Below, piece after piece: positions 8,674-25,600 of a stretch of DNA of 62,867 bases (its first letter is position 1; each line of letters starts with the position of its first letter). The DNA lies in the IMG/VR virus record IMGVR_UViG_3300032050_000130, positions 1 through 62,867 of that record; one strand, given 5' to 3'. A program made the position numbers and the translations under genes. Source of the stretch: a virus. Lineage: Duplodnaviria > Caudoviricetes. The notes under the pieces are model-generated. The model searched no databases and had not been told where the DNA came from. It worked only from the letters and a program-made list of their open reading frames with translations.

Positions 8674-11457
8674 TTAACTATCGAAGAAAATTCCTAAAAT
8701 TTGATTTAGGGGTGCGAATGCACCAGTTAATTTGTAAGTGTTACCACCATATACAAATACAATACCTTCGTTTGGTACAATTTTATCAAATCCACCTAAT
8801 GCGTTTAAACGTTGTAGTTCCAATTTAAGTTTTTCAATCTTTTTAGGGTCACCACTTGCTTTTACTTGTTGAATTGTAGATTCCAAACGTGCTACCATTT
8901 GTCTTTTGGCACTATCAGGATTTGCGGTAAGTACTGAACTCATAAATGATAATACATCCGCACCAACTCCTAAAAATATCTCCTCAAATCTCATTAGATT
9001 CTGCTTTGATATCTTTTGTTGGTCTTGTTTATCAGTTTGCTCAGCCCAAGCTTTTAATTTAGTATCTTGTATTGTGTTAATACGGAAACTCTTATCACCA
9101 AAAGCCCATCTCTTAACCAATCCTATTTTTTCTTGTGTATCTAATTTTTTTGCATTCTTCTCAACAAACTTAGTCCACCATGCTTGATGATAATCTGCTA
9201 CTCCATCGGAATCACTTAATGCAAATTCAGATTGTAGTTTACTAATCATAGAAATATACTTTCCTTGTAATTTAGAAAGATGTTCTGATTTAGGTAACTT
9301 ATTCATCGGTGGGCCTTGAATTGTGTATTTAGATTGTACGTGCGCATTTACTTGCTTAATCATACCACCCAATATACTTGCCGCTTGTTGATTCTCACCT
9401 ACAATAGTACCATCTACATCGTAATCAAAAGTACCATGAAACACTAATAGCGGTTGATTGTAGGGGATTACATTTACGGAGGTTGGGTATATTACTTCCA
9501 AATTCATAAACGAACTACCATCCTTAAATATCTTCTTACGTTGAGGTTCGGATAGGGCTGCTATTGCTTTTGATAGGTCTTGCATAGCGAAATTATAAGC
9601 ATCTGTCAATCCACCTCTACCGGCAAACTTATCTGCTACCTGTCCTATTGTCATCGCACCAGCTCCTTTGTTTTTTAGATGTGATTTGTTACGAGCTGCA
9701 ACTAATCTACCGTTTACCCAACTAACTGCTAATGCTTGTCCATCGGTCTTCTCTCTTGCTAATTCCAAATCACCATTCAATGCTCTTACCACAATTTGTT
9801 TAAGGTCTGCAAATGTTAAACCCATTTCAATATCAAATGGATGTGCCATATGACCATATGCACCACCTTCTAATAATAAACCCTCATTTACTGGATTTTC
9901 TATTTTATCTAATTTGGTATAATATTTAGGGTCTTCGTATAAATGGTCTAATGCAATTTCCTTTGCTATGTTTGTATCAGTTGTATGTTCTCGTTCAATT
10001 GCATACCCTTTTATAAATTCTTGCTTTATACCAGGTAATAAATTTCTATAATCATAATAATCACCTGCCCATTTTTTAGCAATATCAATAAGTGTCATAC
10101 CTTCGGCTTTACCACCAGGTATTTTATCTTCTTTTACTTTTTCGTATTCCTCACTACCATCTTTATCCAATTTAGATTTTAATTTCTTAACATCTTTTGA
10201 ATTTGGTGCTCCATTGATATACCCACCAGGTAAACTCAAACCAACACCAGCACCACCAGGTAATCCCATTTCACTCATTATTTCTTGCTCTAACTCATTT
10301 ATAATTTCATTAATATCATCTTTTGAAATTATTTGTGGTTTTTGATTTTTAGGAAGTTCCCAAAATCTTTTAGGTTTTTGTTCTGGATTTGTTCTATATA
10401 CTTCTTCCCAATCCTCTACTTTATGTGGGTCATCTGCCGGATTCAATGTACTTTGAACTACATTCTTCAATTTATAATATGCTTTTCTGAATTGAGTTTC
10501 CGTATCTTTTGATTTACCTTTACCTCTCATATCATCGGCTTTAGGAGTATCTAATTGAGTATATCCACCTTGCTTATACCAATTTTCAGGTTTATTTGTA
10601 TTTAATATTCTCGGTTGTCCATCTGCTACAAATGAAGTATCAGGTTCATCTCCGGCTTGCATACCAGCATTAGATGCCGCTTCTTTTAGTTCTTCTTTTT
10701 TAGGAATTCTAAATGTTACAGCTTTTTTACCATTAATAGTTGGCATTCCCCACTCATCAGTTCCTATATTTTTAACAACTACTTTTTTGTTTTTAAATTT
10801 ACCCATTAATAAAGTATCACCAACTTTTACGTTTAATTTGATTTCTTCGTTAATATATTCTTTAAGTGACTTAAGTTTGAGAGTAATTAATTTGAATACC
10901 TGGTCATCAAATTTAGGATATGCTTTTATAAATCCTTTCTTTCTATCAGCAGCATTTCCTGCACTTAACCAATAACGAACATCTGTGCCACTAATTGGAT
11001 TTGGTTGAGCAGGTGCTGCATAAACGTATCCTCTATCTAAATACCCAGTATCTACTTTACCCTTATATGCTTTAAAATATTTACCACTTAAACGTGATGA
11101 ATCTTTTTCACCTACCACCGTTATAAACCCAGTGGTATCTGAATCAAATTTGTTAAGTATTTCTTCTGGAGCATAAGGATTACGAATATTCACAATTTTG
11201 TTTGATGGAATACCAAACATCGTTGTCATTATTACTTTCTTTTCCTTAAAATTAAATGGAGATTTCTTTGAATCGGTGGTATTAGAAGTTCCGATATATA
11301 CATTATCTTTTCCAAACTTCTTAACCAAATGGTCATACGTTGCGTAGTGACCTTTATGAAATGGTTGAAAGCGGCCTGAGTAGACAACAACTACTTTGTC
11401 TATTCCTGCCGCTTCTCCCAATATTGTTTCTACTAAAAATTTTTCTAATCCTTTCAT
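8674..11457 (-). CDS. Multi-domain protein: HxGH nucleotidyltransferase + DUF5661-like module + ligase-like (KxDG) domain
   Basis: GRFQPFHKGH and ISGTDVR (cytidylyltransferase/NMNAT-like fold); IEREHTTD..IAKEIALDHLYEDPKYYTKL (DUF5661-like); EKTDGQ, NLEVIYP, EGIVF and YKLTG resemble motifs I, III, IV and V of the ATP-dependent ligase superfamily. Confidence 0.7.
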   Translation of the reverse strand: MKGLEKFLVETILGEAAGIDKVVVVYSGRFQPFHKGHYATYDHLVKKFGKDNVYIGTSNTTDSKKSPFNFKEKKVIMTTMFGIPSNKIVNIRNPYAPEEILNKFDSDTTGFITVVGEKDSSRLSGKYFKAYKGKVDTGYLDRGYVYAAPAQPNPISGTDVRYWLSAGNAADRKKGFIKAYPKFDDQVFKLITLKLKSLKEYINEEIKLNVKVGDTLLMGKFKNKKVVVKNIGTDEWGMPTINGKKAVTFRIPKKEELKEAASNAGMQAGDEPDTSFVADGQPRILNTNKPENWYKQGGYTQLDTPKADDMRGKGKSKDTETQFRKAYYKLKNVVQSTLNPADDPHKVEDWEEVYRTNPEQKPKRFWELPKNQKPQIISKDDINEIINELEQEIMSEMGLPGGAGVGLSLPGGYINGAPNSKDVKKLKSKLDKDGSEEYEKVKEDKIPGGKAEGMTLIDIAKKWAGDYYDYRNLLPGIKQEFIKGYAIEREHTTDTNIAKEIALDHLYEDPKYYTKLDKIENPVNEGLLLEGGAYGHMAHPFDIEMGLTFADLKQIVVRALNGDLELAREKTDGQALAVSWVNGRLVAARNKSHLKNKGAGAMTIGQVADKFAGRGGLTDAYNFAMQDLSKAIAALSEPQRKKIFKDGSSFMNLEVIYPTSVNVIPYNQPLLVFHGTFDYDVDGTIVGENQQAASILGGMIKQVNAHVQSKYTIQGPPMNKLPKSEHLSKLQGKYISMISKLQSEFALSDSDGVADYHQAWWTKFVEKNAKKLDTQEKIGLVKRWAFGDKSFRINTIQDTKLKAWAEQTDKQDQQKISKQNLMRFEEIFLGVGADVLSFMSSVLTANPDSAKRQMVARLESTIQQVKASGDPKKIEKLKLELQRLNALGGFDKIVPNEGIVFVYGGNTYKLTGAFAPLNQILGIFFDS

Positions 11458-11505: not shown

Positions 11506-11862
11506 TTATTTACTAGCTGATTCAGTTTGTTGAATTCTGCTTGGTGCACCTGGTTGATAAATAACAGTTCCTTGTTCTAAATCGATTTGGTGTCTAGGGT
11601 ATTTTTCTTCTAAAGAATCAACCACACCTTTTAACTCTCTACTCTTATCTTTAAAAGTATCCTCTGCTTTTTCAAGAATTTCATCTAATCTAACTAGTTC
11701 TGAATTTAATTCTTTTTTTCTAATATAGATTTGTCCGAAATCATTTATTAAAGCTGATAAATCACCATTTAATGATTTAATTTTATCAACTACTTCTGCT
11801 TCTAACTTTACAGTTTCTAAATCAATAGACTGCTTTTGTGGAATTTTATCTAATTCTGCCAT
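11506..11862 (-). CDS. Small coiled-coil protein, paralogue of 15451-15735
   Basis: FGQIYIRKKEL...LEEKYPRHQIDLEQGTV aligns with LGQLSVRSREL...LQRKYKNAEIDLNDGTV. Confidence 0.75.
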   Translation of the reverse strand: MAELDKIPQKQSIDLETVKLEAEVVDKIKSLNGDLSALINDFGQIYIRKKELNSELVRLDEILEKAEDTFKDKSRELKGVVDSLEEKYPRHQIDLEQGTVIYQPGAPSRIQQTESASK

Positions 11863-11897: not shown

Positions 11898-12287
11898 TTA
11901 TTTTTTATTTTTTAAAATGTTAGTGGTACTAAACCCTTCGATTTTATTGAAAAATTCTATTTTTGGAATATATTCTACTCCTATTATTTCGTCATATTTG
12001 TAATCGTTACCAATAACCATAACATCAGGTCCCCATTCTTTGATTCTTTCTATCAATTCCGCATCGGAACTAAACGATACAACACTATGTACACTTTTTA
12101 TATTTGATAAAAATTCAATTCTATCGTTTAGGTTGTTATATGGTCTATTTTCTCCCTTTTTGGATTTTACTCTTTCATCCGTATCAATACCAACTCTTAC
12201 TTCTCCAAATGTTTTCGCAAATTCCAATAAACGTAGATGTCCAACATGAAGTATATCAAATGTACCATTTACCCAAACCTTATTCAT
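11898..12287 (-). CDS. HldE/RfaE domain II-like sugar-phosphate nucleotidyltransferase (putative ADP-heptose synthase)
   Basis: NGTFDILHVGH, VGIDTD..V..KKG..RP, PDVMVIGNDY and GFSTT; abuts a heptosyltransferase-like gene. Confidence 0.8.
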   Translation of the reverse strand: MNKVWVNGTFDILHVGHLRLLEFAKTFGEVRVGIDTDERVKSKKGENRPYNNLNDRIEFLSNIKSVHSVVSFSSDAELIERIKEWGPDVMVIGNDYKYDEIIGVEYIPKIEFFNKIEGFSTTNILKNKK

Positions 12288-13438
12288 TATAAAAATTTTT
12301 CCAATTCTTTAATTACCATTTGTCCTGTAATATATTTAGTACATTCAAATTGTCTATGTGTACCTTTATGGTCTGGACACCAGTTCCAATCCCCTGCATT
12401 CAATCTGATTCTATTGAAACAACCTTCACATTTCCCTTCAGGTGAACCTATTCGTACACAATCTTGCATTTCAGCCCATTTATAAGAAAATCCACTTACC
12501 AAAACGGTTGGTACTTCTAATGCCCAACTTAACCAACTTAATCCACTACCAATTCCAATAAATGCGTTTGAACGTTTTAATTCTTCCATTACATTTTCAA
12601 TTGGACCGTTTGGATGATGAATGATTCCTTTTGGAAGCTTATTACCCATATAATCATCACCTTCTTTTGATATAAGTCTTACGGTGTATCCTTTAACATT
12701 TAACCAATCAACAACTTCTTGCCATCCGGTTGGATTATTCCAAAATTTAGATTGTGCAGTTCCAAATACGCCAATACATACTTGTTTTTCTTTTTGTAAT
12801 GTTTTAACTTTTTTTAGTTTTGGCTTTACTTCAACATATTCCAATCCTAATATGTCAGAACACATTTGTTGTAATGTTACCGCTTTTGGGTCAATAGGAT
12901 TTTTAAAAAAGTTTACCGAACTATCTTCATTATAAAATAATCCGATTGTGTGCATGGAATATAAGTTTTCTACATTTGTTCCTGGTTTTACGAATTGTAG
13001 TTCTGGATATTGTGTTTCAAACATATCGTTCATAAATGTGGAAACTATTACCTTACATTTATGCTTTTTTCTAAATTCATCAACATATGGAAACCATGCT
13101 AAAGAATCTCCTAATGCTTTTGAATCTAATGCAATATAAACTCTTTTATCCTTTGCATCGTATGTATGTTCAAACCATAATTTTCCATTTTCAAATATTT
13201 CAATTTTCCATTCTACAAAATATTCAATACTACATCTTGCCCAACAATTATTTGTAATTTCTGATGTGAAGTGAACTTTATTAGTTTTATTATCAATAAA
13301 TTTTATAAGATAATTTGATACTTTCGGTCCTTTTATTTCTACAAAGGGGCCCCTAACAAAATGAAATAATACTCTGTTTTGTACTTCTACTTTATTATTT
13401 TTATTCTTTTTTAAATTATTATAAATCATTAGTCCCAA
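12287..13438 (-). CDS. TibC/Aah-like protein O-heptosyltransferase
   Basis: SKALGDSLAWFPY, AQSKFWNNPTGW, FIGIGSGLSWLSWAL and the C-terminal Cys set C-EG-C..WCP.H....FEC that binds iron in the bacterial autotransporter heptosyltransferase family. Confidence 0.85.
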   Translation of the reverse strand: MGLMIYNNLKKNKNNKVEVQNRVLFHFVRGPFVEIKGPKVSNYLIKFIDNKTNKVHFTSEITNNCWARCSIEYFVEWKIEIFENGKLWFEHTYDAKDKRVYIALDSKALGDSLAWFPYVDEFRKKHKCKVIVSTFMNDMFETQYPELQFVKPGTNVENLYSMHTIGLFYNEDSSVNFFKNPIDPKAVTLQQMCSDILGLEYVEVKPKLKKVKTLQKEKQVCIGVFGTAQSKFWNNPTGWQEVVDWLNVKGYTVRLISKEGDDYMGNKLPKGIIHHPNGPIENVMEELKRSNAFIGIGSGLSWLSWALEVPTVLVSGFSYKWAEMQDCVRIGSPEGKCEGCFNRIRLNAGDWNWCPDHKGTHRQFECTKYITGQMVIKELEKFL

Positions 13439-15084
13439 GTTTTTATTGTTTCATCAAGTAATGAATATCCTTCAACTTGCTTACTATACACTTTATTAGT
13501 AGTGTATCTTAATTCTTGATGGTGATAGAATATGTGGTTAAACCAAAGGTCACCAACATCCCATTCACAATCTTTTATTCTTTGATTCCACCATTCTCTA
13601 TCGGTATTCCTTAACAAATAACAATGTGCCAAATCTTGATTATGAGCGGTTTTACTAAAATCCTCATCCACTACTTCTTTATATTGACTTAAGTTATTTG
13701 CCAATCCAATATAGTAAACGTTATTCTTTTCTGCTATATCACATGCTTTATATACTATATCAACAAATTCTTCAACGGTTGAATAAATAAAACCATCTGC
13801 TTCAAACACTAATGTATAATCGTAATCTCTATTTAAATTTTCAACTGCCATTTTATGTGCCAAATAGCAACCATAATGTCTTCCAGTAATCCAACCCAAA
13901 CCAGCTCCAGGATATAATTCTCCAGGTTTATTATCTTTACTTAAATGGTCAGGTCTTCTACAATGTTCTTTTGGTGCAAAATCTTCATAAACTTCATTTA
14001 CAATTGGAACATAGTCCATTCCATAACTTTCCAATTGACGAATAGATTTCATACTAAATCGTTCTCTATCGTTGTATGGGGTTGTTAGTAAATGTTTTAT
14101 TTGTATTCTTGGCTTTTCTGAAAATCCTTCTTTAAATTCAGGTTTTAGATTTTCTATAAGAATTTGTTTAGTTGCATTTGTATCATCGGTTATATATGTA
14201 ACCAACGGATTGGCATCATATGTATCCAAATATGTATATAATTTTCTAAAGATGCATTTCATTTTAAAAGATAATGCTTCTTTTATAGAAAGAGGATTTA
14301 GTTCTAATATTGATGAAAAATAAAAAAGGTCACATGCCGCATAAAACGTATCAACATCATCACGCTCTCCCCAAACAATACAATTATCTGGTTTGTTTTT
14401 CATCAATGGTGACCAATATGTTTCGTAATTCATAGCCTGATTACCTACGAAATGAAATTTAATTTTATACTTTTGTAATTTTCTTGCTATTTCAAATATT
14501 TCCGCTTGGTTTTTTCCAGGCGAAAATAGCCCAACCATTAAAACATGTTTGTAATCTTTTTCTAATCCCAATTCTATTTGAGATTCCTCTTTATTAAATG
14601 AATATTCTTCTATTGGATATTCCCAAGTAGTTAATTCAACACCAAGATTAGATTCTTCAAATTTCTTTTTACTCCATTCCGATACCAACACATATCTATC
14701 TGGTTGATATACTATATCCGAAGGATTTGTAAACGAACCATGTGTTGTTGCAACAATATTATATTTTCTTTTATTATCAAATATTATATCCAACACATAT
14801 TCTGGAAGGTCAAACTGCGGTATCTCCTGAAAATGTATTATATCAGGATTAAAATTTTGAATTACATCTATAATTTTAGATTTATCTTCTCCCAATGTAT
14901 GAACGGGTACTAAACTTTTAATACGATTTTTTTGTACCACAAATGCAGTACCACCACTATTGTTTATTTCAACAACTTCAATTTGAAAATCAGATAAAAA
15001 ATGCTTTATCTGTTTATAGGTATATTGTGGTTGTCCACCCGTAGAAAGGTGCGGACATATGTAAAGTAACTTCTTTTTTTGCAT
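13429..15084 (-). CDS. Two-domain glycosyltransferase (GT4-like GT-B + GT25-like GT-A)
   Basis: HLSTGGQPQY, VGLFSPGKNQ, DLFYFSSILELNPLSIKEAL (GT4-like); C-terminal GCYLAH...LVFEADG...AHCYLL (GT25-like). Confidence 0.8.
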   Translation of the reverse strand: MQKKKLLYICPHLSTGGQPQYTYKQIKHFLSDFQIEVVEINNSGGTAFVVQKNRIKSLVPVHTLGEDKSKIIDVIQNFNPDIIHFQEIPQFDLPEYVLDIIFDNKRKYNIVATTHGSFTNPSDIVYQPDRYVLVSEWSKKKFEESNLGVELTTWEYPIEEYSFNKEESQIELGLEKDYKHVLMVGLFSPGKNQAEIFEIARKLQKYKIKFHFVGNQAMNYETYWSPLMKNKPDNCIVWGERDDVDTFYAACDLFYFSSILELNPLSIKEALSFKMKCIFRKLYTYLDTYDANPLVTYITDDTNATKQILIENLKPEFKEGFSEKPRIQIKHLLTTPYNDRERFSMKSIRQLESYGMDYVPIVNEVYEDFAPKEHCRRPDHLSKDNKPGELYPGAGLGWITGRHYGCYLAHKMAVENLNRDYDYTLVFEADGFIYSTVEEFVDIVYKACDIAEKNNVYYIGLANNLSQYKEVVDEDFSKTAHNQDLAHCYLLRNTDREWWNQRIKDCEWDVGDLWFNHIFYHHQELRYTTNKVYSKQVEGYSLLDETIKTWD

Positions 15085-15450: not shown

Positions 15451-15735
15451 CTATTCAGATACTTCAAACGTAACCGTACCATCATTTAAATCAATTTCCG
15501 CATTTTTATACTTTCTTTGAAGGTCTGATAATACATTCTCTAATTGAAGACTTTGGTTATCCAACTTATCTTCTATTTGTTTTTTTATTTCAAGTATTCT
15601 TTTAGATTCTAATTCTAGCTCTCTGCTTCTTACAGAAAGTTGTCCTAAATCAAAGATATAACCATTTACATCACTTTGAATGTTTTTGATATTATCTATA
15701 ATATCTTCTGCTATTTTTTCGGTTTTTGTTGCCAT
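15451..15735 (-). CDS. Small coiled-coil protein, paralogue of 11506-11862
   Basis: Start moved to MATKTEK at 15735, which removes the overlap with the upstream gene and follows the motif at 15749-15757. Confidence 0.75.
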   Translation of the reverse strand: MATKTEKIAEDIIDNIKNIQSDVNGYIFDLGQLSVRSRELELESKRILEIKKQIEDKLDNQSLQLENVLSDLQRKYKNAEIDLNDGTVTFEVSE

Positions 15736-15769
15736 ATGATTGTTTATATATAAATATATATGTTTTAAA

Positions 15770-17767
15770 TTATTCAAAAATTGCAGAAGCACATCCTCTA
15801 CAAATCGTTTCATATGAGTTTTCAACCATTTTAACATGCTCATCAGTTCCCCAAAAATCTCTCAATTCCTGCGTTTTAAAATCCCCAAACTGCATTTCCA
15901 TTTCATAATCATTACAACAAAGGAACGCTTTTCCACTTGCATTTACATGAACCCACCCAATAGGTCTACCACCAACCTCTCTACCATTTCCACACCCAAT
16001 CACTTTTTTATCAGCAACATTTCTTTTCAAATTTCTTTCTATTGCAGGTTTGTTACTCATTACTTCATCCAGTAGTCCAGCTCTATCAATAAGATATGGT
16101 ACTGTAAAAATATTCACACCTGGAAATAATTCTTTCGCTTTTTTCTCTTGCTGAACTAACTCTCCATTTTGTACATCTAAGTCAATATCCTGTGGGAATT
16201 GTGGACCTTTTTGTAACCAACCGCCTTTCTCAACAAATGATAATTCATGCGAACCATTTATTTGAATTGAGAATGCTTTTCGTTTTACCATTTCTGGTAA
16301 TTGTTCTACTGCATATTTTATATTAGATATTAGTTTATCAAATTGCTTTATATTAATACCACTTCTCTTACTCCAAGTATCCGCATCAAATGCAGGTGTA
16401 TTTAGGCAGATACCACTTAAACAATCTTGATACTCTTTTAGTATATCAACTCTTTCCGGTGTTAGTGGTATTCCATTTGAAAGTACCATCGTTACTAATT
16501 TATACTTTCTACATATTTTAAGTATTTCTTCAAAGTGCGGATATAAAAGAACTTCGTTATAATGCGCTGTGTAAAATCCATTAAATGCTTTTGATACTAG
16601 TCCATCTGGTCTTTCTCTTTCATCGATAAGATTTTTAATTATCTTTTCAAATAGTTCAGGACTCATTACTTCTTTACCGTGGTCAGGATTTCCTTTATAT
16701 CTTACTGGGCAAAACCAACATTTAGCATTACAAACTCCATATGGGTCTATTTGTAAGTTTGTTATTTTATAATCATTAAATTGAGTTTGAACTAAACTCA
16801 TTTTTGGGTGTTCAATTAATATAGATGTTTTTGCGGTTTCACAAATTTCTTTCCAATAATATGAAGAAGCAAACTTATCACTTATATCTAACTTCGCATT
16901 ATAAGGAAGTTTATCCGTGTATGCCCCTTTATAAAATAAACCTTTAGCATACGAATGTACATGAGTTGAATCTGCCACAACTCCTGCATTATGTAGTATA
17001 GGATATTTTTCTACTTCCGAAATATCACCAGTTACCCAACCAAAATCCAATCGTTCATCTACTATTGTTTCATGTCCCGCTAACCAAGCATTCCAAAGTA
17101 AACTCCACATACCCGCAGTCCATTTTTGTATTGGATAATCGTATTCAGTTTTTTTAACATGCAAATGTTCAGTATCACAAAAATATTTATATAAATTTAT
17201 ACTATCAGTTTCTACTTTATCCCAAAATTCATATGTAGTGTTTTTAACAATATATTGCGCTCCACCTGAATTATTATTTAGTAGCTTTGGTATTAGTGGG
17301 TCTATTCCAACTATTTCACACATTTTTTTATATGTATGGTCACCTTTACCGATTATATAATCATAATTTATATAAAATTTAGTATTAGATAAGTACCAAC
17401 TATTACCTTTTATCATATCATCAAATTTCGGTGGTTTTGTTAAAACTATATCCGAATCATGTAAAAATAAAACATCATCTTGAATTTCTGGCCTTGCAAC
17501 AATATGTTGCTTCATTAAATTAAAATAAATAGATGGTTGATAACCTTTATCGTTTCTAGTATCATTATAAAAGAAAAATCGTATAGTATTGTAATGTAAC
17601 ATTAATTTCTTCCATTCATCCGGAACAATACCATTTTCTATACCACATACAATATCAATATAATTTGGATTTACTCCCATTTTTTTGAAGTTGTTAATTA
17701 GAACTTCAACTTGCCAAGTGTAATAAGTTATTGCCGGTTGACAACAAATGTAACGAATTTTTTTCAT
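15770..17767 (-). CDS. Fusion of a GT-A peptide O-glycosyltransferase-like domain and a radical SAM (SPASM/twitch-like) domain
   Basis: The N-terminal half (CQPAITYYTWQVEVLINNF, DxD motif LHDSD, GGAQY, KWTAGMW, ILHNAG) resembles the HPAT/SERGT (GT95/GT96)-like fold. The C-terminal half has CNAKCWFC, SNG and C...LCCND...CRGC. Confidence 0.7.
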   Translation of the reverse strand: MKKIRYICCQPAITYYTWQVEVLINNFKKMGVNPNYIDIVCGIENGIVPDEWKKLMLHYNTIRFFFYNDTRNDKGYQPSIYFNLMKQHIVARPEIQDDVLFLHDSDIVLTKPPKFDDMIKGNSWYLSNTKFYINYDYIIGKGDHTYKKMCEIVGIDPLIPKLLNNNSGGAQYIVKNTTYEFWDKVETDSINLYKYFCDTEHLHVKKTEYDYPIQKWTAGMWSLLWNAWLAGHETIVDERLDFGWVTGDISEVEKYPILHNAGVVADSTHVHSYAKGLFYKGAYTDKLPYNAKLDISDKFASSYYWKEICETAKTSILIEHPKMSLVQTQFNDYKITNLQIDPYGVCNAKCWFCPVRYKGNPDHGKEVMSPELFEKIIKNLIDERERPDGLVSKAFNGFYTAHYNEVLLYPHFEEILKICRKYKLVTMVLSNGIPLTPERVDILKEYQDCLSGICLNTPAFDADTWSKRSGINIKQFDKLISNIKYAVEQLPEMVKRKAFSIQINGSHELSFVEKGGWLQKGPQFPQDIDLDVQNGELVQQEKKAKELFPGVNIFTVPYLIDRAGLLDEVMSNKPAIERNLKRNVADKKVIGCGNGREVGGRPIGWVHVNASGKAFLCCNDYEMEMQFGDFKTQELRDFWGTDEHVKMVENSYETICRGCASAIFE

Positions 17768-17784
17768 AGTAATTAATTAATGTT

Positions 17785-19152
17785 TTATAAACACGATGTA
17801 CAGCTTACTCCTGTGGTTACCGTTCCAAAGAACAATGGTAAATTAGCTGGCCCAGGGTAACCACCAAGTCCAACCTGACTCCACGTTTCTCCACCAAACG
17901 ATATACATCCAGGTGTACTTCCTGCTATACCTTCATAGGTATATTGTGCTCCACCATACGCACCTACACCGGTACACGGTTCGTAATCCCAATATTCATA
18001 GACTATTGCAGCTGTAGTTGTTGTAGTTGGTGCTGCTGGACACGAAGTACAATCAGTTCCCACATAAGTAGAACCATCACCCAAATCAATATCAAATGAA
18101 GGACCAAACGTAGGCTCAAGTAATCTAACACAGGTATATGGTGTAGGAGTTTCAAATACACTAAACGCTACTTGGTCAACACTAAATCTTACAACCAAAG
18201 TAGTTGCCGAATAACAATATTCAGCACTCCAATAGAAATATGATGGTGCAGCCGTTGTAGTTGTAGTTGTTGTAGGTGCTTCCGTTGTAGTTGTAGTTGT
18301 TGTAGGTGCTTCCGTTGTTGTTGTAGTTGTTATAGGTGCTTCCGTTGTTGTTGTAGTTGTAGTAGTTGTTGTAGGCGCTTCCGTTGTAGTAGTTGTTGTA
18401 GGCGCTTCCGTTGTAGTAGTTGTTGTTGGTGCTTCAGTTGTAGTAGTTGTAGTTGGCGCTTCCGTTGTAGTAGTTGTTGTTGGTGCTTCAGTTGTAGTAG
18501 TTGTTGTTGGTGCCGCAGTTGTAGTAGTAGTTGTTGTTGGTGCCGCAGTTGTAGTAGTTGTTGTAGTTGTTGTAGTTGTAGTAGTTGTAGTAGTTGTTGT
18601 AGTTGTTGTAGTTGTAGTGGTTGTAGTAACCGATAAACACGTACCCTTATCATCTAAAGTTCCATTATCACTAATAATAAAATAATTAGTTCCATCTGAA
18701 TAATATCCATTGGGTGCGGGAATTGTCAATCCACTATTAGTAAATATTTGTAGTGTATTTTGTAACACAGTTCCTCCAAACGAATAATAAGTTGTTGGTG
18801 ATGATGTATAATCGTAACAAGAATTTGCGGCAGAAGAAGCATGATATCCCAAGCTAAACGATGAAGGAGCCAAAGTTGTAGTTGTTGGTGCTGGTGGTTC
18901 TGGTGGTGCTGATGTGGTTGTTGTGGTTGTGAATGTAATAGATGCTGATAAACAATCACTGGTCGCTGTACCAAATGTTTCAACAACCGAACCTCCAGGT
19001 ACGGTATATTCATCAGTTTGTGCGGAGAATATTATTGAACCAATTTTAGAAGGTACAAAAACAGTTACTTCATTTCCTTCACATTCAGTCCATGTAACAT
19101 CGCCAGATGTTCCATTTGGTAAGGTTGCTCTATATAGTGTTGATGATGGCAT
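17785..19152 (-). CDS. Mucin-like Thr-rich protein, putative virion fibre or decoration
   Basis: Long poly-Thr and (T)nEAP/(T)nAAP repeats separating small Cys-containing modules; no signal peptide; directly downstream of the tail fibre and chaperone genes. Confidence 0.8.
   Translation of the reverse strand: MPSSTLYRATLPNGTSGDVTWTECEGNEVTVFVPSKIGSIIFSAQTDEYTVPGGSVVETFGTATSDCLSASITFTTTTTTSAPPEPPAPTTTTLAPSSFSLGYHASSAANSCYDYTSSPTTYYSFGGTVLQNTLQIFTNSGLTIPAPNGYYSDGTNYFIISDNGTLDDKGTCLSVTTTTTTTTTTTTTTTTTTTTTTTTTTTAAPTTTTTTTAAPTTTTTTEAPTTTTTTEAPTTTTTTEAPTTTTTTEAPTTTTTTEAPTTTTTTTTTTEAPITTTTTTEAPTTTTTTTEAPTTTTTTTAAPSYFYWSAEYCYSATTLVVRFSVDQVAFSVFETPTPYTCVRLLEPTFGPSFDIDLGDGSTYVGTDCTSCPAAPTTTTTAAIVYEYWDYEPCTGVGAYGGAQYTYEGIAGSTPGCISFGGETWSQVGLGGYPGPANLPLFFGTVTTGVSCTSCL
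18247..18630. repeat. Coding low-complexity repeat (ACA/ACT codon runs; TTTTTT(E/A)AP units)
   Basis: Plus strand shows (gttgta/gtagtt)n interrupted by gg(t/c)gcttc and ggtgccgca. Confidence 0.95.
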
Positions 19153-19638: not shown

Positions 19639-22600
19639 TTATCTTGCCAATACTACAAAATCAACAAATTCAGGTGTCCAATGTCCAGCAAGGTTACCGC
19701 CAATATAGGTTGTTACAATACCAGGACTAGTATGACTAGGTCTTTCTATTCTAAAAGAAAATCCACTAATACTTTTTCCAGTAATTACGGCCATATTTCC
19801 AACTTCTTGGCTAGCATATGCTACGTTTGACGTTGTGGTTTGAACAATATAATCCGTAGAATCCATTGGATTGGTAAAAATTACATCATAAATATTAAAT
19901 GAACCTACAGCTAATGTACTACTAATATTGTAACGATTTAAAATAGTATAGTTTGCAGCATTTGTAATACCACCACCATTGTATCTAATTGTTCCAAATG
20001 CTTTTACTGCAGATGGATTTCCATATCCATTACTATATTTACTAATCGACCTATCGACCATTAAACTACCTGTGATTTCGGTTGAAAAGTTATAAGAACC
20101 ACTTACACCATCTCTTACCCTCAAATACTTATCATCTGCCAATACGGCCTGGAAGCCACCACCATTTATAATAGTACCCGCTGATATTGTTTTTATTGTT
20201 ACAGTTCCAGTAGATGCTGCAAACAAGCTTGTATCTACTTCCGAATCAAATCCATACGGAGGATACTGAGACGGGTCAGATGTATCATTACTATGCGCGT
20301 ATGCGTATCCAACTAAAGTTAAATAATAAGTTACTCCAGATTGTAAATCTGCCAATATTGTCATTTTTGTTGCCGGCAAATAAGAAGTTTGAGATCCTGG
20401 ATAATAAGATATTGTATATTGAAATCCGTTCCATTCATAATATTGATTTACCGTACCTTGTGCAGATGCAATTGCATAGTTTGAAGTTTCTACATAATTA
20501 GTAAATGGCTGTGGATAATGTCCTCCTGTTGTGAGAATCAAACGTAAGTATAAAGTCCCATCCGCTGAACCATTTGCGGTTACATAATTATTATAACTGA
20601 ATGGTAAATTATATGTTATAACATGTTGACCGGCTGCTTGAGTGGTGAACGAACCATTTGAACTTGGTATAATATTATAATCATATGCAATAGTTCCACC
20701 ATAATATGGGTCAAATGTTCCATCATTTGGTACACCATTAGTTTGATTTGATGAAGTAGTATATGTTGGTAAAATAGCATTTGGATATGTTATGCCAGTT
20801 GGTTCTGGTAATGTTAATTTTGTATTTGCGAAAAATCTTAAACTACCTGCGCCATCAAATACCGCAATTGATTCGGATGGTTCTGAATATAATCTAATAT
20901 TTTGGTCTGCTGATATTATTGATCCAGGTCCTATAGTCCATCCACCAATTGTACCATCATTTGAATTAATAGAACCATTTATAGATAAATCTTCACCGTT
21001 CCAAAGAAGCGAACCAGATACTCCCTTTAATGATAATTTCGAAACCCCTTGGTCAAATCCCATAAAAATTCCAGTATTATCATAACCTTGAACTTGAGAT
21101 TCTGTAACCCAGTTACCAGGACCAATACTAGAGCTTATTTGTCCAATAGATAAATAAGGATTAGCATTAGAACCACTTTCATTTGCATTTAAAACAATAA
21201 GTGAATTTGCTCCTCTTGCACCGATATTAATAGTTTTATCAACATATTGTTCTACTGCAAATAATACATCGGTTGCTACTGAACTGAATTGTGCACCAAA
21301 CGAAGTCCAGTTTGTATTTCCGCCACCAGGATAATTCCAAAATGTACCGGCACCTTGAGTACCCGCACTTCCATTCAATCCCGTATTATTTGTGAGATAG
21401 TATGTACTACCATATTTAGTAATATCTTTTCTTTCGGTTGTATGAAAATATCTTTCATTTGGATTAAATAATCCCCTATATACAACACCAGGACCAGGAC
21501 CCCCAGCAGTACCAGTTGTGCCCGCGGTACCAGTGGTGCCGGATGTGCCAGTTGTTCCAGATGTACCAGCTGCAGCGGATACTGCCCAAGTATTGGTTGC
21601 ATCCGGTGGATAACCGGTATTAATATTGTTATCGTTTGTAGAAGTATGTGTATTTGAATTTATCCATGTAGATGATGCATATCTTACAGTATCGTCTGGA
21701 TAATAGGTTACCCCAGAAGCCCATATACCTCTATAACTTCCTTCAGGAATACCAGGTTGTCTTTGACGTATAGAACCAACTATAGTCAATTGGTCACCAT
21801 CCCAAAACATTCCCTTACCAGATGTACCAGTTGTTTTAATTGAGAAACGTCCTGTTGTACCATTTGCACCGTCTTCATAAACACCCATAAAAATACCGGG
21901 TCTATTATACCCAATTACACCCGGTCCGCTAATTGAAGTTCCTGTACCCGATGTTCCTTGTGTACCCGTTTGGCCTATGGCAATATATGGGTCAGTTCTA
22001 CCACCCGCTAATACAATATTGGCAAAAGCACCAGTTCCATCTTTAGTACCAACATTTAAAGTATTCTTTACATATGATTCTTCAAATATCGCAATCTTGG
22101 CCGATACAAAAAATTCTTCTTGTCCTAAATACTGCCAATATGTTGTATCAGTATATGGTGCCGAACCATCTGGTTGTTGTGCTCCAACCGGTGTTCCAGG
22201 TCCACTACCTGTTATAGCAGCCCAATAGTGTGTTTCTTTATTTATTGTTGCTGGGTCAGGCCAAATTACAGCATCTCTTCTTTGGTTTGCTATTTCAGAT
22301 ATATAATCAATAGTTGAACTCCATATACCTCTCATCACAATACCAGGACCAGTATTACCTTCATATACTACTGATAGAGAAAGAGTTTTATAAAGCGTTT
22401 CTCTACCTTCACAATCTATTTGGAATATAATTTCACCGGATGAAATTGTTTCAGGACTTGACCAATTACTTATACCTGCAAAAGATGCCGGACCACCCGA
22501 AACATGAGAACCAGCCGTTAATCCACCGGCCAAAGTTAAATGTCCAGAGTATGATAGAATACTTACTCTACATTGATTTGGATATCCGGTTACACCATAT

Positions 22601-25600
22601 GCATCTAATTGCCCTCCGCTAAAAGTTGAAACATTTGTTAATTCTAAATCTCCTCTAAAAACTCTTATTGTAGTTGTAGATAAATCAAATTCGACTTCTC
22701 CAGAAACTCTATATATAATTCCAGCGTTTTCACTGGATAAGTTTGCACTATAAGGTGCCGGTGGTGTAAATTGAACTGCTAATGATTGTGTTACAAAATC
22801 AATTTGTCTATTTTTTTCATAATCGATTTTATAAATAATTTCAGCACTATGATTAACCGCAGGTGCGTACCAACTAACTATATCGTTAATTGCCGCAGGG
22901 TTACCTATCAATCTATTGGGTGGTGCAACATTAATCCAAGAAGATGTAGTAAAAATTGATGCAGAATAATATCCAAGGTTACCAATTAAATTTCCTAAAT
23001 AATCATTAACTTCTTGCGATATAACGTATGATGATGTATGTGCTAATTGAGTTGTACCTTTAAATGCCGAAATTTGCATTCCACTTCCCGTAAACTGCGT
23101 TGTCCACAAATCAGCGGTTATGGATGCATTGGTATTTGTTGCAGAGTATTTGTATGCATCTGCCCCACCCTTAATACCGGCTATTGTTAATTGTGCTTCT
23201 GCTTTTATTATTGATGGTGGTAATGGAACTGATGGAGTTACAGTTGGTGCCGCACCATCGGTTAATTTTACTTTCCATGTTTTGTTTTCACCAGGTCCTG
23301 CAGCATCACCACCACTTATTCCGCTAAATTCACAAAACGGCGGTGTTCCTTCCAATACACTAGGCCCTGCATAAAATGTTTCACTACCATCCGATTCTAC
23401 ATAATACAAATATGCATTCGGTCCATCAGTTTGACCAGGTATGTACGAACCTGTTGTGTTGAATGCAGTTACGGTAAGTGTAACATCACCAACATCAGTA
23501 TATCCATCTCTATCGTAATTAATTGTAGCCGTTGATGCTCTAAAATCCAATGAACGTGCATTTGGTGGTGCTACGTTTTTTGTAAATGTTTGAGTCCTAG
23601 TAAAAATAGAAGATGTATATTGATGCCCGCTCCCCAATGCAAATGGATATACTTGAATTGTATATAAAGCACTTGCAGAAACATATGGTGCATCAAACCT
23701 ATTATAATTTATAGTAGCTGTACTTAATGAAGATGATGATAATGAACCCGTTCTTATATTCCAAACTCCAGAATTACGAGTTTCTATTGAATTTATTCTC
23801 CAAGTACCCGGTGCAGTTGAACGCGTTGTAAAGGTAAGAAAATCATCACCTTCTTTAACAGTCAATGTAGTGTTCGTACTTGCATATGAAGAAATATAAC
23901 CAACTTCATCCGCAGGTATTGCCACCGATGTTGGTGATATTACAATCTGAATCGGTGGAGGTCCATCTAATATTTTTGTAAAATACTGATACACACTCGC
24001 TGTATAAACCGATGATGTGTAATACGGTTGAATCTCTAATGGAAATTCAATACTTCCACTTAAATTAGTCATATTAGATGATGCACTAAAAATAAGTGAA
24101 TGAGTATAGTTGTTATCAAATCTTATATTACCATTTGTTATATTATTTGCTACAATAGATGCTGTTGCAATATGGAATGTTCCAGGAAATCTACTTCCAG
24201 TAAATAACAAATATCTAGACCCTTGCTTCAATCTAATTTCACCAGTAGATGGTTTATAATCATTTACAATACCTCTTGAGTTTGCATTAAGATTTACATT
24301 CGCAGGAACTATTTCAAATACTATACTTTCATCTCCAGGTTTACCTTCTGGAACAATTGTAAACGTTTTATTAATGCTTACTGATTCCGAAGAATATGGT
24401 TCAATATAAGTCCAATTTATTGTAAGAGTTTTACTTTGAGATAAAGGTGTTCCTACAAATTGATTTTCTAAAGTAGAATTTATAATGTAGTTATTATCAT
24501 CAGTTGCACTTATTTTAATATCAGAATTTACACTCTGAGTCATATAATATACCCAATACTCTGGTACAAAATCTGAATTTATAGACATCGATGGGTAAAC
24601 CATAACTGATGCCGAAATTGGATTTGAACTTGTACCCCTTCTATAAAACGATGCAGTTGCACTTGCAGATGGTGGAGTAAATACTTTTGATAATCTTGGA
24701 TTTATAGTAAATGCATCAGCATCGTAGGTTACAAATCCAGCATCAATACCATCTAATAAATCCGTTAATGTTAATGTTGTATAAATTGATGCAGTTACAT
24801 TAGGATTTGTTGGAGTAGGTTCTGAACCCGATGCTATTAAGTAAATAGTTCTTTGCCCATCTATTGAATCTCTATTAAAAATTGCATTATAATCAAGTTC
24901 TCCAGAACCGGTAACACCTGGATAAATTCCTTTTACAAATCCACTGGCAGATGCATCGGTCAATGTTACATAATATGAACCAGAAGCAACGTATAATCTA
25001 TTACTAGAACGGCCGTATGGCAATCCACTTCTAATATCTAATTCGTTTATTCCATCTATTCTTACTGCCTGAACTTCAAGTGAACCAGATGGGTCATTAT
25101 TTCTAATTACAGTTCCTCTATATGGTCTTATCTCATAATTTACACCACCCTTACCATCTACAACTCTTGTTATGATAATGGAATCATTTATTCCTTCACA
25201 CTCACCGGTAAATTCTATATATTGAACAACAATATCTTCGTTAGAACCTGTAAAGTTTGCAACAGTTAAAGTTAATAAATCAGTTTCTCTATTCAAAAGT
25301 AATCCAGGCACTTGTCCCCCAACGTATTGAGAAGAAGATAATTCATTTCCAAAAAAATCAAAAGAACGAGATGTATATGTTACCGAACCGGTTAAATAGC
25401 TTTTTATTACATCAATCGAAATTACGGTTGGTGGAATAGGGTTACCATTTCCGGATCCAGAATCAAATTGGAAATATAAAGAAGATGGAACTAGTTGTAA
25501 ATCTTTATTAATTACATTTAAATTACCACCATCAAATGTTTTACTTTCTTCAACAACTACAGGAATATAATTGTTATTAATATCGTAAAACTGAAATCTA

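Follow-up and report, generated by a model that had tools for sequence, protein, structure and literature searches.

Locus and gene architecture

The 62,867-nt IMG/VR viral fragment IMGVR_UViG_3300032050_000130 (hereafter the window, meaning the whole stretch of DNA that was analysed) carries a gene whose 665-aa product joins an N-terminal glycosyltransferase (GT) module to a C-terminal radical S-adenosylmethionine (SAM) enzyme, and which follows a gene for a threonine-rich, mucin-like protein (Table 1). The fragment has an estimated completeness of 34% and a GC content of ~31%, holds nearly all of its genes on the minus strand, and includes genes for a baseplate wedge protein, a portal and the large terminase. 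The terminase is most similar to that of Flavobacterium phage vB_FspM_immuto (56%), followed by that of Microcystis phage Mel-JY01 (54%), a kinship that identifies the source as a large aquatic myovirus, i.e. a virus of aquatic bacteria.

An earlier reading of the letters alone (the original prediction) had described the gene as a fusion of a plant HPAT/SERGT-like GT domain with a radical SAM enzyme. The open reading frame (ORF) is intact, with its start and stop codons in place, and the N-terminal motifs that had been quoted were all located, beginning with YYTWQVEVLINNF at residue 15 and continuing with DSD (104), GGAQY (168), WTAGMW (216) and ILH (257); they fall on the columns where conservation in the family is strongest (W18, D104, D106, G169, Q171, W216, M220, W221 and H259). 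The single CX3CX2C motif (CNAKCWFC) lies at residues 346-353. A full-length AlphaFold (AF2) model reached a mean predicted local distance difference test score (pLDDT) of 89.8 and a predicted template modelling score (pTM) of 0.69. Full coverage of the query (100%) was found in 47 of 103 homologues, at 53-100% identity and from many assemblies, the window's own cluster being one of the 47; the fusion is therefore not an artefact of assembly or frameshift.

Table 1. Features of the window discussed in the text.
Feature	Position	Strand	Remarks
Bifunctional GT-A/radical SAM protein, whole gene, 665 aa	15770..17767	-	ORF; ATG start, stop at 15770-15772
GT-A glycosyltransferase module, residues 1-322	16802..17767	-	phrog_4417 family, GT8-clan fold
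DXD motif D104-S-D106	17450..17458	-	After strand 99-103 in the model
BtrN-like radical SAM domain with Twitch-type auxiliary-cluster subdomain, residues 329-665	15773..16783	-	Structure and profile
Radical SAM cluster motif C346-X3-C350-X2-C353	16709..16732	-	60/60 distinct family sequences
Putative ligands of the auxiliary iron-sulfur (Fe-S) cluster, C592, C617, C618, C656, C659	15791..15994	-	Conservation in the family
Mucin-like protein, presumed substrate, 455 aa	17785..19152	-	Small modules with Cys, linked by poly-Thr
Main poly-Thr tract, residues ~176-303, T5-10[E/A]AP repeats	18244..18627	-	Tandem repeats 18245-18626, periods 27/30/54
551-aa protein with GT-B (Glycos_transf_1) domain	13429..15084	-	Pfam 2.1e-13; phrog_2170 glycosyltransferase
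Aah/TibC-type protein O-heptosyltransferase homologue	12287..13438	-	TIGR04414 3.4e-86, 289.5 bits vs cut-off 200
Heptose-1-phosphate adenylyltransferase-like protein (RfaE domain II)	11898..12287	-	TIGR02199 2.1e-28, 98.9 bits, below cut-off 181.5; phrog_7878 9.2e-36
2,512-aa ORF just upstream of the island	19639..27177	-	Ser/Thr/Gly-rich, GTxGT-type repeats
Small helical-looking protein ending IDLNDGTVTFE	15451..15843	-	
Small helical-looking protein ending IDLEQGTVIYQ	11506..11862	-	
927-aa protein	8674..11457	-	N-terminal cytidylyl/adenylyltransferase-like domain and DUF5661

The N-terminal module adopts a GT-A fold

Residues 5-310 match positions 2-290 of the 293-position profile phrog_4417 (E 1e-61), a family to which PHROGs assigns no function, and Pfam returned no match in residues 1-322. 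An exhaustive search with residues 1-325 yielded 799 representative clusters at E ≤ 1e-3, including 328 at E ≤ 1e-30, and of 50,697 deposited phage genomes, 77 have a match to the GT half, always annotated as hypothetical. Folded alone, the GT domain gave a pLDDT of 94.7 and a pTM of 0.92, and this model was compared with 48,161 chains in a structural search independent of Foldseek. LgtC came first (Z 15.1, root-mean-square deviation (rmsd) 3.5, 234 residues aligned), followed by glycogenin (Z 14.9) and Skp1 alpha-galactosyltransferase (Z 14.7), and the first ten places were all taken by GT8-clan proteins, with WbbM, UGGT, an Anaerococcus GT8 protein, LARGE1 and GlyE among those after the top three. 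Behind these came GT6 enzymes and then the PBCV-1 capsid glycosyltransferase A64R (Z 11.2), while the remaining rows shown were glycosyl-, sugar-phosphate- or nucleotidyl-transferase folds. A Foldseek-guided comparison concurs on the GT8 clan (glycogenin Z 15.3, LgtC 15.1).

The GT8 clan is retaining, and several of its enzymes use proteins or protein-linked glycans as acceptors. With its members LgtC, glycogenin, Skp1 alpha-galactosyltransferase, the UGGT catalytic domain, LARGE1 and GlyE, the GT module has in common its fold (Z 12.8-15.1 over 212-254 aligned residues), a DXD motif placed after a beta-strand, and a conserved histidine near the C-terminus; unlike them in sequence, it is only 6-13% identical and forms the separate family phrog_4417. 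Pfam Glyco_transf_8 matched neither the 665-aa protein nor any of 49 stand-alone relatives at E ≤ 10, and a profile of the GT family searched against PDB sequences gave chance matches only (TAL-effector repeats, geminin), with no sequence-level match to a solved structure. Nine residues are invariant in the 49 stand-alone relatives (Y76, D106, G169, Q171, M220, W221, H259, G262 and K280); D104 is conserved in at least 90% of these, both D104 and D106 are invariant in 67 fused relatives, and the DXD motif, Q171, H259 and K280 are invariant or nearly so across stand-alone and fused forms. Assignment of the N-terminal ~320 aa to the GT-A glycosyltransferases is thus borne out by the GT8-clan matches and the conserved DXD motif, and on the point which the original prediction had named as decisive, i.e. 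whether this domain has a GT-A fold, the model and the structural search agree that it does.

The more specific likeness to plant HPAT and SERGT is weak. In its favour, some relatives match the Pfam HPAT family (PF23452) and language-model neighbours carry it; against it, the 665-aa protein has no such match and the best solved structures are GT8-clan. PF23452 (cut-off 23.9 bits) did not match the 665-aa protein at E ≤ 10, and the HPAT model run directly on the window found nothing, but it found nothing in 14 control genomes either, which makes this run uninformative. It matches two of the 49 stand-alone relatives (best E 1.3e-4) and is the only glycosyltransferase-type Pfam family to reach any of them below E 0.1 (Stealth_CR2 and Nucleotid_trans reach one member each, E 0.17-0.38); none of 10 relatives from cellular genomes matched at E ≤ 0.1. 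By language-model features, which give a lead and not an alignment, PF23452 is found in 21 of the 30 nearest named clusters in the ESM atlas, on 10-58% of the members of each, and DUF7164 in six more. The GT-family profile obtained 2,941 matches in a set of 5.8 billion proteins, with no named HPAT among the 120 closest listed, and the PDB structural matches of the GT domain include no HPAT or SERGT entry. We read the GT family as a separate GT-A family, structurally close to GT8, and probably a distant relative of HPAT by sequence.

A BtrN-like radical SAM enzyme in the C-terminal half

Pfam recognizes Radical_SAM (PF04055) at residues 342-489 (E 3.3e-10, 40.8 bits vs a cut-off of 29.5) and SPASM at residues 605-659 (E 7.1e-07, 29.9 bits vs 21.5), and NCBIfam gave only generic, below-threshold matches to the C-terminal half. 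Across 60 distinct family sequences, C346, C350, C353 and C592 are present in every one and C617, C618, C656 and C659 in 58 each; the other cysteines are not conserved (C419 and C454 in about half of the sequences, C449 in three of the 60). A full SPASM domain has seven or eight conserved cysteines for two auxiliary clusters; the five conserved auxiliary cysteines found here therefore suggest one cluster instead of two, and the sequence pattern is that of a single auxiliary Cys4 cluster.

A profile built from 28 members of the radical SAM family matched BtrN (E 2e-14, 56.6 bits) in two stretches covering the core and the C-terminal subdomain, and aligned C592, C617, C656 and C659 with the four cysteines of the BtrN C-terminal domain. 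The runners-up were YydG/EpeE (3.4e-4) and TYW1 (7e-3), with DesII absent at E ≤ 1, and the comparison of the single sequence with BtrN was weaker (E 0.0033). BtrN (PDB 4m7t) also led the structural ranking, with 227 of 246 residues aligned at Z 19.3 and rmsd 2.9, followed by ChlB, CteB, SuiB and anSME (Z 16.3-16.8). Pfam, cysteine conservation and the BtrN profile together bear out the original assignment of the C-terminal half to the radical SAM enzymes, auxiliary cysteines included.

BtrN, the 2-deoxy-scyllo-inosamine dehydrogenase of the butirosin pathway, converts a secondary alcohol of a cyclitol into a ketone and contains an auxiliary cluster of the Cys4 type, according to a passage in PMC10337720. 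Both proteins have the CX3CX2C motif and, in the phage protein as a sequence pattern, one Cys4-type auxiliary cluster. Unlike BtrN (~250 aa), the phage radical SAM half comprises 337 aa and is ~90 residues longer, with 17% identity in the structural alignment; it also has a fifth conserved cysteine (C618), is fused to a glycosyltransferase and is phage-encoded, and the butirosin intermediate used by BtrN cannot be its substrate. Viperin was considered and rejected as an identity, since the PADLOC prokaryotic viperin model scored only 19.9 and 18.8 bits on the generic core, and the NCBIfam viperin model 23.5 against a cut-off of 180.

No match to the radical SAM half was found at E ≤ 1e-3 in the same 50,697 deposited phage genomes. 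Its relatives number 476 in the 188-599-aa band; among the 120 listed, nearly every one is a stand-alone protein of 341-347 aa with 61-76% identity. The stand-alone forms begin ~22 residues ahead of the cysteine motif, and hence have no peptide-recognition domain (RRE). In the sources, this aquatic-phage clade is labelled only 'AslB' or 'PqqE/SkfB family'. One locus (L160:7000-10006) holds three tandem radical SAM paralogues of 330, 330 and 337 aa, each with a CX3CX2C motif. On two contigs the radical SAM locus is present twice, ~146 kb apart and in near-identical neighborhoods (L115 and L122 on 206,326 nt, L116 and L124 on 221,321 nt), which may represent a long repeat or an assembly concatemer.

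Threonine-rich genes precede the glycosyltransferase

The 455-aa neighbor is encoded on the same strand, and 17 nt separate its end from the start codon of the GT-radical SAM gene, which directly follows it as originally described. Its composition includes 148 Thr and 11 T5+[E/A]AP repeats, and its layout resembles beads on a string, with four Cys modules (12 Cys in the flanking modules) and poly-Thr linkers between them, the longest of ~125 aa. It has no Pfam or PHROG match, and its globular modules have relatives in close kin only, in an alignment that is shallow and mosaic.

The association with an adjacent Thr-rich gene, raised by the original prediction for this one locus, proved to be a strong general rule for the GT family. 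We examined the best 80 of at least 594 confirmed viral GT loci (44-91% identity, ORFs called mechanically), scoring an ORF as S/T-rich when its best 20-aa window held at least 14 Ser+Thr. An S/T-rich gene lies directly upstream of the GT in 60/79 loci, and among the two upstream genes in 67/79; the first and second downstream genes were S/T-rich in 0/77 and 0/74, respectively, and all other genes in 20/607 (odds ratio 93). Thr predominates in the best windows of these tracts (908 T, 204 S, 31 P, 27 A), whose carrier proteins measure 154-1,647 aa. In 80 GT loci from cellular genomes (31-51% identity), scored at a threshold of at least 8 S/T in 10 aa, the rule recurs for stand-alone forms of <400 aa: the upstream gene is S/T-rich in 29/42 loci, as opposed to 0/45 downstream and a background of 33/630 (15/42 upstream at the stricter threshold of 14 in 20).

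Prophage-like loci, mostly from Bacillota, have an upstream gene of ~205-225 aa in the tail-tube position, which ends in poly-Thr in 24 of the 26 listed. In Enterococcus phage phiFL1A, the gene for the GT homologue gp51 comes directly after that for the major tail protein (C-terminus NGTTTTTSTTTTTTSSTTTTTTTQASSK) and before the tail chaperone genes. The GT gene is thus situated in the structural module beside its presumed target gene in the window, in phiFL1A, and in the viral and prophage-like loci. The tail-tube-position genes of the Bacillota loci (L184-L243, e.g. L194, L200, L205, L207) share the conserved end FGxxYP(S/T) followed by 7-15 Thr/Ser, and the gene order in these loci is tail-tube-position gene, stand-alone GT, ~116-aa gene, ~1,100-aa gene.

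Plant HPAT (GT95) and SERGT (GT96), compared here by sequence features only, would resemble the phage GT in being peptide O-glycosyltransferases acting on repetitive hydroxy-amino-acid tracts. Unlike these enzymes, with their hydroxyproline or Ser acceptors, the phage GT probably acts on Thr, because the proline share of the tracts is independent of the radical SAM gene and the phiFL1A tail contains no proline. A hydroxyproline acceptor is not supported (tract Pro share 0.071 vs 0.070 with and without radical SAM, P 0.75), and a search of the window for a prolyl-hydroxylase-type (PF13640) oxygenase found none. The median S/(S+T) of the tracts is 0.076 in loci with radical SAM vs 0.168 in GT-only loci (P 3e-5, the loci being related and not phylogenetically independent), and this lower Ser share may be meaningful or a mere lineage effect.

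Coupling of the two modules and their fusion partners

The relationship between the two modules was followed in 80 viral radical SAM loci (37-93% identity). In the 28 loci where the radical SAM protein is at least 60% identical to that of the window, seven are fused and 19 have a stand-alone GT within two genes, 17 of these upstream, which leaves two without a GT, one of them with only 1.2 kb of upstream sequence. An S/T-rich gene lies further upstream in 19/28, and a split locus (L091) retains the gene order of the window. On the radical SAM-domain tree the fused state needs three changes, of which well-supported branches force only one.

More distant members of the radical SAM clade keep company with other enzymes. 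In the sampled loci L129, L130, L135 and L147 the neighbor is a PF11397 (GT60-type 'GlcNAc') glycosyltransferase, and elsewhere a DXD sugar-binding GT (L140) or a GDP-mannose 4,6-dehydratase (L111). The same clade is also found fused C-terminally to a PF11397 GT (P0097, 2.9e-61, radical SAM 37% identical to that of the window) and fused to a Sulfotransfer_2 sulfotransferase (P0079, 6.2e-13, 52% identity). As in the window protein, the GT of P0097 is N-terminal and the radical SAM enzyme C-terminal, and L129, L130 and L135 likewise have S/T-rich genes upstream, two or three genes away. The PF11397 systems differ in that their GT family is unrelated and their loci carry prolyl-hydroxylase-type 2-oxoglutarate (2OG) oxygenases that are lacking in the window fragment; PF13640 2OG oxygenases and TauD-like dioxygenases accompany the PF11397 GT and radical SAM genes at L130:9939-11590 and L135:9962-12379. 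This combination of PF11397 GT and PF13640 oxygenase recalls the Skp1 hydroxyproline-GlcNAc pathway of eukaryotes. The stretch L140:4555-7233 holds AurF-like, methyltransferase and TauD-like genes.

The GT module has partners of its own. In 67 fused representatives these are Glyco_transf_7C (9), GT2 (8), GT6 (3), Gly_transf_sug (2), GT29 (1) and a methyltransferase (1), with GT11 and more methyltransferases among the 103 homologues; the fusion partners of the GT module are glycan-elaborating enzymes.

Proposed function and alternative readings

Both folds with their catalytic motifs, the homology to BtrN, the adjacency of GT and poly-Thr genes, and the coupling of GT to radical SAM are directly supported by the present data; from these we infer which acceptor and donor are used, the anomeric outcome, how the steps are ordered and what radical chemistry takes place. 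We give about an even chance to the overall reading that the protein couples Thr O-glycosylation to oxidation of the attached sugar by a BtrN-like module. Its parts differ in strength: the GT quite probably glycosylates the upstream Thr-rich protein, the substrate of the radical SAM half is rather likely to be a sugar and not the peptide, and that this half acts after transfer and as a dehydrogenase is a tentative proposal, at best as probable as its opposite.

According to this proposal, the bifunctional enzyme would build a modified O-glycan on a phage structural protein. The GT module would act as a metal-dependent, probably retaining GT-A enzyme, with D104, D106 and probably H259 at the metal/donor site, and would initiate O-glycosylation by moving a sugar from a nucleotide sugar to the hydroxyl groups of Thr (and Ser) within the 455-aa protein's poly-Thr linkers. 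The BtrN-like module would then cleave SAM at the C346/C350/C353 cluster, the 5'-deoxyadenosyl radical would remove hydrogen at a carbinol carbon of the sugar just transferred, and the electron would exit via the single auxiliary cluster (C592, C617 or C618, C656, C659). The predicted product is a keto-sugar, which would either complete the modification or provide a handle for subsequent tailoring. The original prediction had left oxidation, epimerization and deoxygenation of the sugar or Thr side by side; the BtrN type with one auxiliary cluster favors oxidation of a sugar hydroxyl over the other two. The BtrN-like module would thereby fill the slot that is held by elongating or tailoring enzymes in the sister fusions.

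Several observations weigh against this proposal. An S/T-rich gene directly upstream is missing in 19/79 viral loci, which are moreover interrelated and best-ranked, so that their P value overstates independence, and one fused locus (L006/L105) has no S/T-rich upstream gene (best window 10 of 20). In cellular genomes, forms of ≥400 aa, mostly from Bacteroidota, show the association in 1/33 only. Where the radical SAM protein is <60% identical to that of the window, this GT module occurs within 8 kb in 0/52 loci and an S/T-rich upstream gene in only 9/52, and some distant radical SAM genes adjoin unrelated genes (e.g. an RNR-like gene in L114). Radical SAM enzymes with Twitch and SPASM domains catalyze many different reactions, the second-best profile match is a peptide epimerase (YydG/EpeE), and the Foldseek ranking is headed by a nucleotide-sugar enzyme (DesII). 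Scans of the island with Pfam and NCBIfam revealed neither an aminotransferase nor any other enzyme to which a keto-sugar would be a substrate. The donor, acceptor and reaction are all deduced from sequence and models.

The forms of ≥400 aa, mostly from Bacteroidota, carry GT7C or GT2 domains fused to the GT module. On Chitinophaga, Pedobacter and Mucilaginibacter chromosomes (L174, L177, L178, L180, L192 and others) they are ~560-590 aa long, with a Glyco_transf_7C/GT2-like second domain, and such two-domain forms may belong to another glycan pathway, unrelated to phages.

The order of the two steps could also be reversed, with the radical SAM half altering a nucleotide sugar, as DesII does with a TDP-sugar, and the GT then placing that rare sugar on the Thr-rich protein; the fusion would serve to channel an unstable donor. 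DesII is the best Foldseek match (E 4.5e-10) and has a structural Z of 15.8, BlsE, another nucleotide-sugar radical SAM enzyme, is among the structural matches, the gene adjoining one radical SAM relative (L111) acts in GDP-mannose metabolism, and all of the genomic data on GT-radical SAM coupling fit this order equally well. We nevertheless regard it as unlikely: the sequence profile places BtrN far closer than the nucleotide-sugar enzymes and does not list DesII, the pairing of radical SAM with two unrelated GT families and a sulfotransferase is easier to explain by action on an attached glycan than by one special donor shared among them, and the other fusion partners of the GT module work after the first transfer.

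A little less probable again is a radical SAM half that modifies the protein itself, with glycosylation as a separate event, whether by L-to-D epimerization of the YydG/EpeE kind, by Thr side-chain oxidation of the anSME kind, or by cross-linking of cysteines in the Cys modules. YydG/EpeE is second in the profile ranking, anSME, CteB, SuiB and ChlB reach Z 16-17, the tracts in radical SAM loci are poorer in Ser, and the flanking modules of the Thr-rich protein offer cysteines as targets. Set against this are the lack of an RRE or any other peptide-binding domain, with stand-alone forms that start so close to the motif, the one auxiliary cluster as opposed to two in anSME and the sactisynthases, and a clade that is repeatedly fused or adjacent to glycan-acting enzymes, the sulfotransferase included; oxidation of the Thr hydroxyl would also compete with glycosylation of the same atom. 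That the enzymes modify DNA bases or a host surface polysaccharide, the adjacency to Thr-rich genes being gene order only, we consider very improbable, since, although DNA glucosylation and serotype conversion are the best-known roles of phage glycosyltransferases (as stated in a passage of PMC12619734) and the two-GT forms of ≥400 aa rarely have an S/T-rich neighbor, the adjacency is directional and specific (upstream, never downstream), recurs in unrelated phage types between major tail protein and tail chaperone genes, and comes with no DNA-modification genes in the island, as scanned with Pfam, PHROG and NCBIfam.

Known and predicted virion glycosylation

Passages in PMC12619734 and PMC13313380 that cite Freeman et al. 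2023 describe mycobacteriophages whose glycosyltransferases decorate the C-termini of capsid and tail-tube subunits, and the former reports that virion glycans shield mycobacteriophages from anti-phage responses. The prophage and phiFL1A loci are alike in placing a poly-Thr tail on the tail-tube gene with the GT next to it. They differ in hosts and phage lineages, and a radical SAM partner is not mentioned in the citing passages. Both enzyme superfamilies and phage virion glycosylation are thus already known; what is new is the rule linking the GT family to its presumed substrate, together with a partner of the BtrN type that probably acts on a glycoprotein. The pairing of this GT with a radical enzyme is previously undescribed. 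The original prediction knew of no characterized fusion of this kind, and our search of the full-text literature, in which subscription journals were mostly outside coverage and supplements were excluded, likewise found no GT-radical SAM fusion, and neither a phage BtrN-like enzyme nor a poly-Thr rule for phage glycosyltransferases.

Returning to the proposed oxidation of an attached sugar, we hold with some reserve, as somewhat less probable than not, the broader view that the BtrN-like domain acts on a protein-attached sugar within a widespread, unrecognized phage system that coats virion poly-Thr linkers with modified mucin-like glycans. To our knowledge, a radical SAM step in protein O-glycan biosynthesis is known in no organism. 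If the proposal is true, the BtrN-like domain would be the first known case of a radical SAM enzyme that tailors an O-glycan linked to a protein, and would add such a step to this biosynthesis, with the enzyme and its likely substrate encoded side by side. It would offer an explanation for the aquatic-phage radical SAM clade behind the labels mentioned above, as well as a testable function for phrog_4417, a very large family of phage 'hypothetical proteins' (799 representative clusters, at least 594 viral stretches). The predicted glycosylation sites are poly-Thr tails and linkers on tail-tube and fiber-like proteins in phages of Enterococcus, Lactobacillus/Lacticaseibacillus, Staphylococcus, Clostridium and Bacillaceae. 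Because virion glycans are reported, in the passage cited above, to shield mycobacteriophages, this prediction bears on therapeutic phages.

Other genes of the island

The genes that follow in the island include a GT-B protein, an Aah/TibC-type heptosyltransferase homologue and a heptose-1-phosphate adenylyltransferase-like protein (Table 1), and the matches of the latter two suggest that the island also encodes another, independent activity for protein glycosylation (Ser heptosylation). Heptosylation genes occur in 9-10 of 31 loci with GT and radical SAM, as compared with at most one of 75 GT-only loci. A functional tie between radical SAM and heptosylation was rejected, as the co-occurrence is limited to those 9-10 loci and reflects lineage synteny.

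The giant ORF just upstream of the island probably encodes a fiber, judging by its composition and repeats, and a similar giant ORF also precedes the island in L091 and L099. The two small helical-looking proteins have similar ends and may be paralogues. The first of them, as listed, overlaps the 3' end of the GT-radical SAM gene by 74 nt, and its true start is probably an internal ATG. A 1,333-aa relative of the 927-aa protein follows the radical SAM gene in L099.

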